This document shows, piece after piece, positions 9,247 through 15,252 of a DNA stretch of 64,000 nt. The stretch is from Chlamydiota bacterium (GTDB taxonomy: Bacteria; Chlamydiota; Chlamydiia; Chlamydiales; JAAKFR01), in contig JABDDZ010000001.1 of NCBI GenBank assembly GCA_013287335.1, positions 3,045-67,044 of the forward strand, written 5' to 3'. Every line of letters begins with the position of its first letter. Within the stretch, counting starts at the first letter, position 1. The notes beneath the pieces were generated by a model. It was given only the letters and a program-made list of their open reading frames with translations, searched no databases and had not been told where the DNA came from. The position numbers and the translations under genes were made by a program.

Positions 9247-9999
9247 TTATTTAATATTTTTAATGAAAAAGCCTGAATATCCGCAAGGGGAGGAACTAGT
9301 GAATTGGAATTCTAAATTAGGGGGAACTCTCCTCGTGAGGAGCATTTTTAGTAGAGGGAGAGAGCATTTTGGAGAGAGACCTTGAAGGGAGCCGGGATAA
9401 AGGCCATTTTTTGCCCCCATCTCTTTAAGTTCGGACGGTTTAATAAAGAGATTATAAAGATGCAAATTCTTGGGGGTTTTTCTAACAAACCATTCTACTC
9501 CCTTGATTATGACAAGATAGCTCAAAAAATTGCGATTGAAGGTATGGAAGAAGAAGAGTCCGTTCGGTTTAAGAACACGGCTTGATTCCTTCACAGCTCT
9601 TTCTGGATCTTCGACATGTTCTAAGAAATCCATCGAGCAGACAATATCAAAAGTGCTATTTTCAAATGGTAATTCTAAAGCATTAGCCTCTAGATAATTA
9701 ACTCTTTTAGTGGAGTCTCTTTCTTTTGCAATCTCAAGGCTTGGGAGTGAGAGATCCACTCCTGTGACTGCATGGCCTTTTTTGATAAGTTCATTGCAAA
9801 CAAGCCCTCCGCCGCATCCGACATCGAGAATTTTTAATGGGGAGGTGCCAAAATGCTCTTCGATGATCCGATTGATCCAGGGGAGGCGGGCTCTATTCTC
9901 GGCGCGAAGTAGGGCAATGGGGTGGTCGTTTCCCTCCTCATACCATCTCTTTCCAAAGTCATCGTAGCAGGCGTTATTGATCTTTACTTTTTTTTCCAT
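9247..9999 (-). CDS. Class I SAM-dependent methyltransferase, UbiG-like
   Basis: Motif I ILDVGCGGGLVCNELIKKGHAVTGVDLS, then DIVCSMDFLEHVEDPERAV and LKPNGLFFFHTFNRN. These are collinear with the UbiG/O-methyltransferase layout. Confidence 0.8.
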   Translation of the reverse strand: MEKKVKINNACYDDFGKRWYEEGNDHPIALLRAENRARLPWINRIIEEHFGTSPLKILDVGCGGGLVCNELIKKGHAVTGVDLSLPSLEIAKERDSTKRVNYLEANALELPFENSTFDIVCSMDFLEHVEDPERAVKESSRVLKPNGLFFFHTFNRNFLSYLVIIKGVEWFVRKTPKNLHLYNLFIKPSELKEMGAKNGLYPGSLQGLSPKCSLPLLKMLLTRRVPPNLEFQFTSSSPCGYSGFFIKNIK

Positions 10000-10490
10000 A
10001 GTAGATTCCAGTAGATAATTTGATAAAAAAAGAAGAGGGCCATCAGTATAAACTGTATGGTTAAAAAGGGACTAAAGAGGGGGGAAGAGTCAAACCAGGA
10101 GGTCGCCCAATTGCTAGTAGGGAGACTATTACTTTGTCCAATTTTTGCCCACATAAGGCCAGCGCTTATTAGGGCAATAGGGTGATTTACAAAAAGCAGG
10201 GCGTGGAGCCACTGTTCTGTTGCATCGCAGTGTTTATTATGCACCCACTCATCTTTTGTCACAAAAAGGGTTGAAAAGGTGGCAAGAGCTGCATATCCAA
10301 AGCATCCAAGATAGGAGTAGGGGGCTAGGATTGCATATAAAAGGCAGGCTACTACAGAGAGGGTATCGAGGGGATGGCCGATGCGTTCCCATTTTGGGAG
10401 TCCTCTTTTCAAGTGAAAGTAAAATTCATCAAAGAAAATAGCCAATCCCTGCACGAGAAAAGGGATAAATAAAATCATCGTTATTTTCAT
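9984..10490 (-). CDS. Polytopic membrane protein with conserved His/Asp/Glu clusters, function unknown
   Basis: The track ORF 9984..10520 begins at GTG. The first ATG is at 10490 (MKITMILFIPFLV...). Hydrophobic segments alternate with DEFYFH, GHPLD, KDEWVHNKH and HALLFVNH. The 3' end overlaps the methyltransferase start by 16 nt, suggesting translational coupling. Confidence 0.6.
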   Translation of the reverse strand: MKITMILFIPFLVQGLAIFFDEFYFHLKRGLPKWERIGHPLDTLSVVACLLYAILAPYSYLGCFGYAALATFSTLFVTKDEWVHNKHCDATEQWLHALLFVNHPIALISAGLMWAKIGQSNSLPTSNWATSWFDSSPLFSPFLTIQFILMALFFFYQIIYWNLLWKKK

Positions 10491-10536
10491 AATCCACCCA
10501 TTAAGTTGAAGGATTAACACTTCATAAAAAAATTAT

Positions 10537-10606
10537 CACCACAGAGCAGAGACTCAACTTTAGAATTTTTACGTCCTCATAAGCCCTGTCTGTGGTCTCT
10601 GTGGTG
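10537..10606. repeat. Inverted repeat of the CCACAGAG-type module (module A of a dispersed repeat family)
   Basis: caccacagagcagagactc (10537-10555) pairs with gtctgtggtctctgtggtg (10588-10606). The left arm plus flank nearly matches the reverse complement of 42390-42420. Confidence 0.8.
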
Positions 10607-10630
10607 CTTTTATTCATGGTTTCCATAAGT

Positions 10631-11752
10631 TTAAGTGACAGAGAGAAGGAGGCCGCAGATTGTTAGGCCCGGTCCAAAGGCCAATGAGATGATTTCTCTT
10701 CCTTTTTCTATCTTGTCATCATTTAAAATAGCTTCCCAGATATGAGGAAGCGTCGATGAGGACATATTTCCCCGCTCAAAGAAGACCTTTTTTGTTGCAG
10801 CAATTTGCTCCTCTTTTAGTTCCAACGTCTTTGCTATCTGATCAATGATTTTAGGCCCCCCGGGATGAATTGCAAAAAGAGGGGGCTGCCTAGCGCCGCA
10901 CTCTTTTTTTATCCGCAGCGCATCCAGCCGTTCGATGAATGTCTTGACAGCTCTTGTAATATAGACCGGAATCTCTTTGGAAAGAGTCATCTGAAATCCC
11001 CAATCCTTACACTCCCATCGCATCAGCTTTTCACTATTTGGAATCATCTCATCGAGAAAGGCTTCTACAAGAAATGCTCTCTCTTGTGAGGAGTTTTTGA
11101 TGCTATATTTAACAAAACCATCTGCAAAGAGTGACTCCCCGACAAGCTGCTCCGCCGTATGTAAAGAGGGGTTAAGGTGCAATGTACAGATTTCAGTATG
11201 AACAATGTCCGTTCTTGCCTCACTATTACGAGAAAAACCACATCCCATGCGGATCGCCTTAATTGCTCCCATGCATCCCATGTGATAGGCATGGGTGACG
11301 CTGGTGCTTTTTTCCCAACCGAGATTGGCAACTCTCGTTTGGGCGCCGCTGGGGCAGTTATATCCGGTGCAGGTTACATGGATCAGGTCAGCCGGCGGCT
11401 CTTCTTCTTTAGAAGGGTAGAACTCCATAAAAAGAGTATCGACAATCTGCTTGTAGACTTCAGAGCGCCTACCCATGCCATGCCCTAAAGGGAGATCTTG
11501 AAGAGGATAAAGGGTCATCTGTTCCCAATCGGTATGAGTGAAATCTGCTAGGGCAGATCCTCTTTGGCCAATATAGGAGGGTTTGCAACAGACCTTTTCG
11601 ATTGTTCGACTTATGGCCTCTCTAATCTCAGTAGACCCTTGCGCAGAAAATAGATGGGCTTTCTCAAGCCACTTAAGGCCATATTCTTGTGAGCAAATGT
11701 ATTCAGGGAGAATAGTGTGGAAGTCAGATAAGTATAAGTGGTTAGGAGCCAT
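10631..11752 (-). CDS. Type III polyketide synthase (chalcone/stilbene synthase family)
   Basis: The Cys-His-Asn triad contexts are all present: AYHMGCMGAIKAIR, FAIHPGGPKIIDQI and FFERGNMSSSTLPHIW. The 373-aa length is typical for the family. Confidence 0.85.
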   Translation of the reverse strand: MAPNHLYLSDFHTILPEYICSQEYGLKWLEKAHLFSAQGSTEIREAISRTIEKVCCKPSYIGQRGSALADFTHTDWEQMTLYPLQDLPLGHGMGRRSEVYKQIVDTLFMEFYPSKEEEPPADLIHVTCTGYNCPSGAQTRVANLGWEKSTSVTHAYHMGCMGAIKAIRMGCGFSRNSEARTDIVHTEICTLHLNPSLHTAEQLVGESLFADGFVKYSIKNSSQERAFLVEAFLDEMIPNSEKLMRWECKDWGFQMTLSKEIPVYITRAVKTFIERLDALRIKKECGARQPPLFAIHPGGPKIIDQIAKTLELKEEQIAATKKVFFERGNMSSSTLPHIWEAILNDDKIEKGREIISLAFGPGLTICGLLLSVT

Positions 11753-11825: not shown

Positions 11826-12548
11826 TTAAAGAGCTTGATCGATAAGAGCGGTTGTCTTCTCTTTAGATGTTGCAGCATCGATTAAAAATAGGGTTCCGCG
11901 CGCACCATAGTATTCCTTAAGAGGCTCTGATTGTTTGTGATAGATGTCGAGACGGTCTTTTACAACCTGTTCGCTATCATCTTTTCTTTGGATAAGCTTC
12001 CCGCCGCAGCGATCGCACTCTCCCTCTTTTTTGGGAGGAAGCACAGTTTTATGGTAGGGGGCTGCGCATGTATTGCAGACGATGCGCCCGGCAATGCGTT
12101 CAATAATGATTGCATCACTGACTTCGAGAGAAAAAACAAGGAGCTGGACACTTTCTCCAAGATATTTGCTAAGGGCTTCAGCCTGTGGAATGGTCCTTGG
12201 AAATCCATCTAGAATATATCCATCTTTGCAGTCAGGGCGTTCAATACGGGAGAAGAGCATCTCCAGTACAATACTATCAGGAACAAGTTCTCCTTTTTCC
12301 ATGTAAGATTTAGCTTTTTGCCCAACGGGTGTATTGGCTTTAAGGTTTTCTCTAAAAAGATCACCGGTAGAGATTTGAGGCAAAGAGAGTTTCTCTACGA
12401 GATAGAGAGCCTGAGTTCCTTTCCCGGCACCCGGCGCTCCTAACATAATGATCACCTGGGGTTTAGAGATCTCTTGGGCTTCTGCCATAAGCGAGCCTGG
12501 CAGAACAAGAGGAAGAAGAGCAAGCGTTAGAAAAGAAAGGACCTTCAT
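11826..12548 (-). CDS. adk: Adenylate kinase with a Cys4 zinc lid and an N-terminal signal-peptide-like extension
   Basis: P-loop GAPGAGKGTQA; DGFPRT; lid CNTC...CDRCGG. I chose the start at ATG 12548, preceded by aaaggtg, rather than the track start at 12647. The N-terminus reads MKVLSFLTLALLPLVLPGSLMAEAQE. Confidence 0.85.
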   Translation of the reverse strand: MKVLSFLTLALLPLVLPGSLMAEAQEISKPQVIIMLGAPGAGKGTQALYLVEKLSLPQISTGDLFRENLKANTPVGQKAKSYMEKGELVPDSIVLEMLFSRIERPDCKDGYILDGFPRTIPQAEALSKYLGESVQLLVFSLEVSDAIIIERIAGRIVCNTCAAPYHKTVLPPKKEGECDRCGGKLIQRKDDSEQVVKDRLDIYHKQSEPLKEYYGARGTLFLIDAATSKEKTTALIDQAL

Positions 12549-12764
12549 ACTACACACCTTTACAAATAGGGGTGTTAATAGTACCAAACACACCTTTTTT
12601 TGAATAGACCCTAATACCAAGAGAGCTTGAACGGAGCTAAGCCGCAATCGTAGGTCTTAGGCCTACGTTAGGCGAGCCATGTAATTCGCCTCAAAATCAG
12701 GGCGTTGCACTGATTTTTTGGGTTCAGATTTCACAAAAAGTGTTACCTACGTCCTGACAGATAA

Positions 12765-14119: not shown

Positions 14120-14560
14120 TTATGTCCGCTGCACAATCTTTTTCTTATCAGCAGATAAAGTACCCCCCAAAAGAAGTATAATCGCCAGAAAGGCAAGAGC
14201 TGAGAGCATCGGAAGAGTAATAAAACCCAGACCAATTTCGACTCTTTCTGAACAGCTCGGGCCCGCCCCACACATATCTATGGGATTCCATCCGGGAATC
14301 TCCTGGATGGCTATTTGATAGATAGCAAATAAAAGGCCGATGACGACAAGAGGCAGAACATAGATCCCAATCCCTCGGAACCCACGGTAGCATGCAATCC
14401 CTAAAATAAAGATAAGAGGGAAGAGACAAATTCTCTGATACCAGCAGAGATGGCAGGGTTCATGGTGGCGAATATCGCTAAAATAGAGAGATCCAACAAA
14501 AGCTATGCAGGTGATGAGCCAAGAAAAATAGAGACCATAACGGCGAAAAAAAGTTGTCAT
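14120..14560 (-). CDS. dsbB: Disulfide bond formation protein B (BdbC/DsbB family)
   Basis: Four hydrophobic segments; CHLCWYQR CxxC motif in the first loop/TM; second Cys pair CGAGPSC. The start overlaps the stop of the upstream gene (TAATG). Confidence 0.75.
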   Translation of the reverse strand: MTTFFRRYGLYFSWLITCIAFVGSLYFSDIRHHEPCHLCWYQRICLFPLIFILGIACYRGFRGIGIYVLPLVVIGLLFAIYQIAIQEIPGWNPIDMCGAGPSCSERVEIGLGFITLPMLSALAFLAIILLLGGTLSADKKKIVQRT

Positions 14561-15252
14561 TAGTTTACTCCTTTCTGCTCTAATAGTTCATTGATGAGTT
14601 TTTGGATGGCGCTGTAAGAGAGCTCTTTCACAAGAATTCCATTTACATAGACTGTTGGAGTTGAAAGTGTTCCGCCCATTATTTTCCTTCCGTAACTATT
14701 ATTCTGTTCAATTTTTACTCTGTAGGTCTCCCTTTCGATGCATTTTCTTAATTTCTGTGTATTAATAGCCGGACTTGCTGAATGAGCCATCTGGGTGAGC
14801 TTATCCAACGTGGCCCAGTCCAGATGTTCCGGAGGCTGGTGGTCATACATATAGTCAAGATAGGTAAAGAAAAGTTCATTATTTGGGTAGAGGGGGTCTG
14901 CATAATAGACGCAGAGAAGAGAGGTTGCAGCAGGCATTGATCCGGGTAAAAAGGAGACGGGAATAACTGTGTATTTGACCTTATTCGTGTCTATGAAATC
15001 TTCTTTAATTTTCGGATAGATATTGTCATTAAACTCTTTACAATTGATACATTTCGGCTCTTTAAACACAACGACTTGAACCGGCGCTTTTGGGTATCCG
15101 ATTGTTGGCTGCCCCTTTGTAGAAATGGTTATTGCCTCGGGCAATTTTTCCCCGAAAAGAGAGAGCATCATCCCCATAATCAGAACAAAAATTGCAATTG
15201 TTACCCATATCAGTGTTTTGGGAGGTCTCTCTTCAAGAACATTTCTCTGCAT
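14560..15252 (-). CDS. Membrane-anchored DsbA/BdbD-like thiol-disulfide oxidoreductase
   Basis: N-terminal TM anchor; thioredoxin-type CxxC in FKEPKCINCKEF; C-terminal TPTVYVNG cis-Pro-loop-like motif. Confidence 0.7.
   Translation of the reverse strand: MQRNVLEERPPKTLIWVTIAIFVLIMGMMLSLFGEKLPEAITISTKGQPTIGYPKAPVQVVVFKEPKCINCKEFNDNIYPKIKEDFIDTNKVKYTVIPVSFLPGSMPAATSLLCVYYADPLYPNNELFFTYLDYMYDHQPPEHLDWATLDKLTQMAHSASPAINTQKLRKCIERETYRVKIEQNNSYGRKIMGGTLSTPTVYVNGILVKELSYSAIQKLINELLEQKGVN

Follow-up and report, generated by a model that had tools for sequence, protein, structure and literature searches.

The 64,000-nucleotide stretch of Chlamydiota DNA considered here (contig JABDDZ010000001.1; hereafter the window) carries three genes, arranged head to tail on the minus strand, that encode a type III polyketide synthase (PKS), a small membrane protein and a UbiG-like methyltransferase. 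It is very probable that this cluster makes a methylated lipid derived from an alkylresorcinol, with the membrane protein and the methyltransferase acting together. A fuller account, in which the three genes form one operon-like unit making a membrane-resident O-methylated phenolic lipid from a long-chain 5-alkylresorcinol and the membrane protein serves as an oxygenase, appears finely balanced between right and wrong, and the specific assignment of the membrane protein as a ring oxygenase is offered a little more tentatively still. The layout, already described in a first-pass annotation made from the bare sequence, is borne out by the list of open reading frames (ORFs): the synthase (373 aa, also recognized by Pfam) occupies 10631–11752, the membrane gene 9984–10478 (164 aa and five helices, or 168 aa if translation starts at the ATG at 10490), and the methyltransferase, a class I S-adenosylmethionine (SAM)-dependent O-methyltransferase of the UbiG/Coq3 family (250 aa), 9247–9999.

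As judged from its sequence, the synthase is a member of the ArsB/ArsC phenolic-lipid clade with an intact active site and the determinant for resorcinol formation in place, which upholds the earlier description of it as a phenolic-lipid-type enzyme. Both Pfam domains of the fold, PF02797 Chal_sti_synt_C (74.3 bits, 1.3e-20) and PF00195 Chal_sti_synt_N (32.9 bits, 5.9e-8), score above their gathering cut-off of 27 bits. The Cys-His-Asn triad was likewise rightly reported as complete: C160 (MGCMGA, codon 11275–11273), H296 (IHPGG, 10867–10865) and N329 (RGNMSS, 10768–10766), all on the minus strand, align with the triad of ArsC and are invariant in 120 of 120 homologues. The closest sequence match in the PDB is ArsC of Azotobacter vinelandii (3VS9, 198 bits, E 2e-57; 3VS8, 192 bits), with 39% identity over 294 aligned positions, and the other solved type III PKSs, among them Steely1, biphenyl synthase, chalcone synthases, Mycobacterium tuberculosis PKS11/18 and tetrahydroxynaphthalene (THN) synthase (THNS; 1U0M, 69 bits), reach at most 90 bits (best E 1e-24). 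Identical proteins aside, even the nearest relative of the window synthase is only 50% identical to it.

The two ArsC structures are informative about the product. Entry 3VS8 is the wild-type enzyme and 3VS9 its G284W mutant, and the position concerned, Trp281 in ArsB and Gly284 in ArsC, switches the enzyme between aldol closure to alkylresorcinols and lactonization to alkylpyrones (PMC6274091); the equivalent tryptophan has been read as a predictor that the polyketide-quinone synthase PkqA forms resorcinols (PMC9927152). In the window synthase this position is W246 (codon 11017–11015, minus strand), which aligns to G284 of ArsC and to the tryptophan of the G284W mutant and is invariant in 122 sequences, comprising the 120 chlamydial homologues and two PKSs that adjoin fused genes in high-GC bacteria (below). 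Because the residue is of the ArsB type, a resorcinol is predicted over a pyrone, and we infer that the enzyme would make an alkylresorcinol from a long-chain acyl starter. The resemblance to the ars operon of A. vinelandii extends to the relatedness of the synthases, the triad and the ArsB-type tryptophan, whereas ars has neither a methyltransferase nor a membrane protein of this kind; conversely, no genes for the type I fatty-acid synthase ArsA/ArsD were found to adjoin the window cluster or to recur as conserved neighbours across 81 loci.

Conservation of the three-gene order had been proposed as a check on the first reading, and it holds: 80 species-representative loci were fetched by means of the membrane protein and the three window proteins were located in each by tblastn, and the order PKS, membrane gene, methyltransferase recurs in 78 of them amid differing flanking genes. 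In 78 of the 80 the membrane gene has the PKS immediately upstream and on its own strand; the methyltransferase is found downstream, again on that strand, in every one, and in all but two it follows immediately. The exceptions to the common order are L024, where the PKS lies beyond the methyltransferase on the other strand, and L067, where it lies 3.5 kb upstream; a further locus obtained from a protein look-up (L001) has the PKS and the membrane gene with no methyltransferase nearby. Of 81 loci, 51 have a Redoxin/AhpC-TSA thiol-peroxidase gene (e.g. L057:2507–3013) downstream of the methyltransferase and on its strand, usually as the gene that follows, and 41 have a TauE/SafE-family permease gene upstream of the PKS; malic enzyme and a transporter are further common neighbours. 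None of these four occurs anywhere in the 64-kb window; the three-gene unit alone has travelled together. The chlamydial loci have a median GC content of 45%, and the window 42%. Many of the metagenome-assembled genomes (MAGs) that carry the cluster are deposited as Verrucomicrobia, Bacteroidetes, Acidobacteria or even 'Chlamydia trachomatis' (L010, L012, L024, L047, L071 and others), titles that are likely taxonomic mislabels of environmental Chlamydiota bins.

The membrane gene and the methyltransferase gene are joined more closely than by adjacency. The 16-nt overlap that had been noted between them can be read directly from the sequence (ATGGAAAAAAAAGTAA, 9984–9999, minus strand), and the ATG of the methyltransferase sits inside the codons for a conserved W-N-x-x-W-K motif at the end of the membrane protein. 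In about 70 of 78 related loci scored, the two genes overlap by 13–34 nt (13, 16, 19 and so on to 34), always leaving a remainder of one on division by three and with the ATG in the same codons; this phase-conserved overlap therefore argues for translational coupling of the two genes. In the window the TAA stop within the overlap comes right after the heptamer A AAA AAG, and the methyltransferase is read in the −1 frame. We take this to be the heptamer of the Escherichia coli dnaX −1 frameshift site, and slippage on it would yield a fusion of membrane protein and methyltransferase of the sort that is a single gene in other phyla. Programmed −1 frameshifting was rejected as a conserved mechanism, the heptamer being absent in most relatives and only the phase of the overlap being kept.

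Fusions of this sort do exist in nature, by the hundred. Several proteins of 400–420 aa among the representatives at 50% identity consist of the membrane domain followed by the methyltransferase, and a search with one of them returned 2308 proteins at an E-value of 1e-20, of which all 120 listed are full-length fusions (384–527 aa, 63–86% identity), one of them labelled Myxococcales. The loci that encode them have 66–73% GC, and the window proteins are 37–49% (membrane protein) and 40–50% (methyltransferase) identical to the two halves. Four of five contexts have a type III PKS with the same tryptophan immediately upstream of the fusion; it overlaps the fusion gene by 4 nt in three and stands 3 nt off in the fourth. 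L029 (L029:1520–2857, 53% GC), which is among the 80 GTDB loci, likewise encodes both parts in one in-frame ORF with a linker of about 50 residues, so that the fusion is not confined to the group with 66–73% GC. A fused protein was modelled with confidence as a single unit, with a predicted local distance difference test (pLDDT) score of 91.6 and a predicted template modelling (pTM) score of 0.75. Taken together, gene fusion, coupling and co-inheritance indicate that membrane protein and methyltransferase form one functional unit that works on what the PKS makes. As to the surroundings of the fusions, an Fe/Mn superoxide dismutase (Fe-SOD) gene is divergently placed upstream of the PKS in two high-GC loci (L086, L089), a UbiA prenyltransferase gene lies near the fusion in two others (L087, L091), one of which has no PKS nearby, and two loci have an EVE-domain gene (L086:9214–9819, L089:8247–8903) that overlaps the fusion gene at its end.

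That the methyltransferase is UbiG-like, as had been supposed, is supported by sequence and by fold. It matches Methyltransf_11 in Pfam (1.2e-28), exceeds the cut-off of the NCBIfam UbiG model TIGR01983 (143.1 bits against 102.95) and carries the SAM-binding motif LDVGCGGG; its top sequence match in the PDB is E. coli UbiG (4KDC, E 1.4e-29), in an alignment that spans the segment after the Rossmann core, and for the modelled methyltransferase domain of a fused homologue three UbiG entries head the Foldseek list with template modelling (TM) scores of 0.79–0.81. Membership of the family by profile score, sequence and fold is thus held in common with UbiG and Coq3, whereas the ring to be methylated would here come from a polyketide and not from 4-hydroxybenzoate, and Chlamydiae are without the ubiquinone pathway. 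Genes of that pathway (UbiA, UbiD/X, ring hydroxylases) were not found in the window cluster or among its conserved neighbours. Chlamydiae produce menaquinone; environmental clades do so through the classical pathway and Chlamydiaceae through the futalosine pathway (PMC5826181). For this reason the methyltransferase is best regarded as a UbiG-family enzyme that does not serve ubiquinone synthesis. Relatives of the methyltransferase that databases call 'bifunctional ... UbiG', and one fused relative called 'gamma-tocopherol methyltransferase', are probably over-annotated, and the UbiG naming of chlamydial genes, which fits badly with a menaquinone phylum, amounts to a systematic mis-annotation.

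The middle protein is the novel component, and the suggestion that it is not one of the known partners of such synthases has held up. A single-sequence profile search placed it in no Pfam or NCBIfam family; 30 members of its own family searched against Pfam at E-values up to 10 gave nothing meaningful (best E 4.4); and no PDB sequence matched it, even by profile at E-values up to 10. An AlphaFold2 model built on an alignment of 30 sequences has five long helices (mean pLDDT 92, pTM 0.87), and a Foldseek search of the PDB with this model returned nothing at E<1, its top rows being designed helical repeats and unrelated membrane subunits. Homology to AOX, Coq7, ICMT, PAQR, UbiA or cytochrome b was considered and left unsupported, no Foldseek match in the PDB pointing to any of them. 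The family is nonetheless large, with 1321 homologue clusters at 90% identity and 310 at 50%, and the gene is present in at least 552 GTDB species-representative genomes.

Across 151 diverse representatives of this family, fifteen polar residues are conserved at 98% or more: D17, E18, H22, R25, E31, H35, D38, S69, K75, D76, E77, H80, E88, H92 and H99 (numbered from the ATG at 10478), that is, five His, seven Asp or Glu, and one each of Arg, Lys and Ser. The motifs picked out at first reading (DEFYFH, GHPLD, KDEWVH, HALLFVNH) are all present and contribute residues to this set, and on this account they are not compositional noise; on the minus strand DEFYFH lies at 10430–10413, ERIGHPLD at 10388–10365, KDEWVH at 10256–10239 and EQWLHALLFVNH at 10217–10182. 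In the model the conserved polar positions lie where helices 1 and 3 end and where helices 2 and 4 begin, and each of the four helices bears a Glu-x2/3-His pair (E18-H22, E31-H35, E77-H80 and E88-H92), an arrangement that, on sequence grounds, looks like a (di)metal site. Lysine and arginine number nine on the cluster-bearing loops and the C-terminus against none on the opposite side, so the polar cluster should face the cytoplasm at the membrane surface, which is consistent with the fusion of a cytoplasmic methyltransferase to the C-terminus in other organisms. Alignment of helices 1–2 with helices 3–4 by hhalign brings the DE..H/E...H motifs into register, but with an E-value of 0.07 that is suggestive without being significant. 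The protein may be a new kind of membrane metalloenzyme.

Comparison with known cassettes indicates what such an enzyme could be doing. The srsABC genes of Streptomyces griseus, pkqABC of Mycobacterium smegmatis and Streptomyces MNU77, hidABC of Cyanobium and the three-gene operons of planctomycetes each combine an alkylresorcinol synthase and a methyltransferase with a flavin adenine dinucleotide (FAD)-dependent oxidoreductase, and their products are methoxylated alkylphenols or benzoquinones; those of actinobacteria function as alternative electron carriers when the cells are dormant or hypoxic. The window cluster has in common with them the compact form and a type III alkylresorcinol synthase adjoining a methyltransferase and one further gene. 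It differs in that the third gene, which there encodes a soluble FAD-dependent oxidoreductase or hydroxylase, here encodes an unrelated five-helix, His-rich membrane protein, and in that the methyltransferase belongs to the UbiG family and is joined to that protein by translational coupling or by fusion. The precedents of the srsABC type that had been invoked at first reading thus apply in their pairing of PKS and methyltransferase, whereas their oxidoreductase is missing: no FAD-dependent oxidoreductase or hydroxylase was found in the window cluster, in ten annotated contexts or among the frequent neighbour families. With the FAD oxidoreductase absent and a protein resembling a metal site carrier filling the third slot, an oxygenase role for the middle protein is the one we infer.

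The pathway so proposed would run in three steps. The ArsB-like synthase would be primed with a fatty acyl thioester, add three malonyl units and, by aldol closure, form an alkylresorcinol, to be released as 5-alkylresorcinol into the cytoplasmic leaflet. The five-helix protein and the UbiG-family methyltransferase would then work as one membrane-bound unit, their coupling being evident from the overlap and the fusions and their chemistry being conjectural: the former, as a metal-dependent oxygenase standing in place of the FAD hydroxylase of srsABC, pkqABC and hidABC, would hydroxylate or oxidize the resorcinol ring at an interfacial metal site. The UbiG-like enzyme would finally O-methylate a ring hydroxyl, and the product would be a methoxy-alkyl-hydroquinone or -benzoquinone of the 'polyketide quinone' type, or a hierridin-like methoxyphenol lipid. 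Coq7 is a di-iron hydroxylase that acts before the last, Coq3-catalysed methylation in ubiquinone synthesis, and the scheme would mirror that succession of a membrane-associated metal hydroxylase and an O-methyltransferase on a lipid-anchored ring. The thiol-peroxidase and superoxide dismutase neighbours fit a redox-active product.

Several observations weigh against assigning the oxygenase step to the middle protein. Metal binding is deduced only from the identity and position of residues, and the internal-repeat signal expected of a pseudo-symmetric di-metal bundle is weak (the hhalign E-value of 0.07 given above). The di-iron carboxylate enzymes AOX, PTOX and Coq7 carry an E...ExxH...E...ExxH pattern on a four-helix bundle, to which the four Glu-x2/3-His pairs may be likened, but similarity to these enzymes was found neither in Pfam nor in the PDB nor by Foldseek, and Coq7 and AOX resemble the middle protein neither in sequence nor in fold; more broadly, AOX, Coq7, fatty-acid hydroxylases and hemerythrins are all represented in the PDB and none was matched, leaving the protein without a detectable sequence or fold relation to any oxygenase. 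A resorcinol already has two hydroxyls, so that the methyltransferase requires no prior hydroxylation, and HidA methylates an alkylresorcinol directly. Some carriers (the K940, KR126 and K1000 MAGs) come from anoxic sediments, and strict anaerobes would speak against O2-dependent chemistry, although the literature examined did not assign these MAGs to strict anaerobes. The peroxidase and dismutase neighbours, for their part, may be plain synteny, and the lipid product of the cassette is a prediction for every member.

These points lend themselves to a different account of the middle protein, as a non-oxygenase that anchors the methyltransferase, presents its substrate or serves as a lipid-handling or export subunit, with the pathway ending at a mono- or di-O-methylated alkylresorcinol. 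That lipid would serve the envelope structurally or as an antimicrobial, as in Azotobacter cysts and the planctomycete or hierridin pathways. The fusions and the phase-conserved overlap indicate physical coupling to the methyltransferase and not catalysis, the protein resembles no enzyme in Pfam, the PDB or Foldseek searches, methylation of a resorcinol needs no additional hydroxyl, and planctomycete two-gene operons of methyltransferase and PKS occur without an oxidoreductase. An anchor, however, would have no need of fifteen near-invariant charged, histidine and other polar residues clustered at the interface in lineages less than 50% identical to one another; moreover, enzymes of the UbiG family, as far as is known, bind membranes unaided, and the window methyltransferase aligns across the E. 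coli UbiG region responsible. We regard such a role as possible though unlikely.

A metal enzyme of some other chemistry would account for the conserved cluster and is less probable again. The middle protein might hydrolyse or decarboxylate an alkylresorcylic acid or the acyl donor, or it might be a desaturase or hydroxylase of the alkyl chain or an alkyl- or prenyl-transferase, and clusters of His, Asp, Glu, Ser, Lys and Arg at the cytoplasmic leaflet are indeed found in integral-membrane zinc hydrolases of the alkaline ceramidase and PAQR types and in lipid phosphatases. Some type III PKSs (FtpA, ORAS) release resorcylic acids, and the UbiA neighbours in two loci hint at further decoration of the ring. 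Against this, the middle protein shows no Pfam match to PAP2, PAQR, CPBP, UbiA or FA_hydroxylase at E-values up to 10 and no fold match, and W246 predicts decarboxylative aldol closure as in ArsB. A partly similar arrangement occurs in Bacillus subtilis, where the type III PKS BpsA is followed by BpsB, a small polytopic membrane protein of about 170 aa that is a membrane methyltransferase of the ICMT family. The succession of type III PKS and small polytopic membrane protein is common to both systems, whereas a separate soluble methyltransferase is present here as well, and no profile or fold match to ICMT/PEMT was obtained from Pfam at E-values up to 10 with 30 family members or from Foldseek against the PDB. 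Finally, a merely incidental adjacency, in which the methyltransferase would be a true isoprenoid-quinone UbiG or the PKS would make an unrelated pyrone, phloroglucinol or THN, might draw on the score above the NCBI UbiG equivalog cut-off and on database names (UbiG for homologues of the methyltransferase, naringenin-chalcone or THN synthase for those of the PKS), but is largely refuted by the conservation of gene order (kept in 78 of 80 species whose flanks vary, and once more in a distant phylum of high GC content), sits poorly with menaquinone, not ubiquinone, in Chlamydiae (PMC5826181) and with the 198 bits of the PKS to ArsC against 69 to THNS 1U0M, and is highly improbable.

Type III PKSs in chlamydiae are not in themselves new. 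The opinion given at first reading, that lipids of the secondary-metabolite type are unusual for Chlamydiae, was overstated, for type III PKS clusters are known from environmental chlamydiae: an antiSMASH survey reported them to be widespread in Amoebachlamydiales and Sororchlamydiaceae, where they rank with the best-conserved clusters, and to be lacking in Chlamydiaceae (PMC9666466), and they are listed for Endochlamydia hydrae as well (PMC13229535). Their presence has thus been reported before, whereas literature searches returned no description of the constant three-gene architecture, of the ArsB-type assignment or of the middle family with its fusion to a UbiG-type methyltransferase. The occurrence of the cassette in at least 552 species-level genomes suggests an unrecognized envelope or redox lipid in environmental chlamydiae. 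The middle gene, for its part, defines a large unannotated family (about 1,300 clusters at 90% identity) with no Pfam entry, no solved fold, a confident model and an invariant site of His and carboxylate residues; the size of the family, the model, the site and the 'Rosetta stone' link by fusion to a UbiG-type methyltransferase make its function directly testable.

Phenolic lipids made by type III PKSs have repeatedly been linked to resting forms and to respiration at low oxygen, examples being the cysts of Azotobacter, the spores of Streptomyces and the biofilms of mycobacteria. A resting stage is also found in Chlamydiae, and menaquinone is, to our knowledge, the only quinone known from them. 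A bolder extension of the oxygenase proposal, which is speculative and on balance doubtful, is that the middle protein founds a new class of oxygenases, compact, integral to the membrane and equipped with a non-haem (di)metal site, that would convert alkylresorcinols to hydroxyquinols and, with the coupled methyltransferase, yield a polyketide benzoquinone, a second respiratory or antioxidant quinone beside menaquinone in environmental chlamydiae and in the high-GC carriers of the fusion, perhaps tied to the elementary body, which is dormant and extracellular. If this were true, the polyketide quinone would parallel such lipids in the spores, cysts and hypoxic biofilms of other bacteria.

Some details of the locus concern the limits of its genes. 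The longest ORF for the membrane gene runs from a GTG start over 9984–10520 and would encode 178 aa; the N-termini of homologues coincide with the ATG at 10478, and of two gene calls in databases one is of 164 aa and the other of 168 aa, so that the protein is really of about 164–168 aa. Between the stop of the PKS gene and the start of the membrane gene lies a spacer (10491–10630, minus strand) of 140 nt if the start is at 10490 or 152 nt if it is at 10478. From the junctions of the 80 loci and of called genes, this spacer is longer than in relatives, in which the tblastn matches of the two proteins mostly stand about 15–40 nt apart and called genes stand 4 nt apart or overlap. The spacer holds no terminator-like site, and promoter- and terminator-like sites around the cluster are not above shuffled expectation.

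The cluster is flanked by an adenylate kinase gene upstream and a giant ORF downstream that has no Pfam match in the window. A poly-C tract at 3752–3762 (minus strand) reads C9 here, whereas L005, another assembly made independently from the same organism, has C8, and with C8 the ORFs 3749–9190 (1813 aa) and 1–3783 (at least 1261 aa, running off the left end) join into a protein of more than 3070 aa; the Logan gene call for the joined giant protein is of at least 3495 aa and carries PF12340 DUF3638. The difference reflects either a sequencing error in the homopolymer or phase variation of the tract. The longest ORF of the adenylate kinase gene adk (11826–12647) includes a 64-residue N-terminal extension with a signal-peptide-like stretch, MKVLSFLTLALLPLVLPGSLMA, while a GTG at 12455 would give the canonical Adk start, M-IIMLGAPGAGKG. 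Further along, two adjacent ORFs at 14120–15252 (minus strand) look like a pair for disulfide-bond formation, with a DsbB-like candidate that appears polytopic (146 aa, C-x-x-C motif CHLCWYQR) and a DsbA- or thioredoxin-like candidate of 230 aa with a putative membrane anchor and a C-x-x-C motif (CINC).

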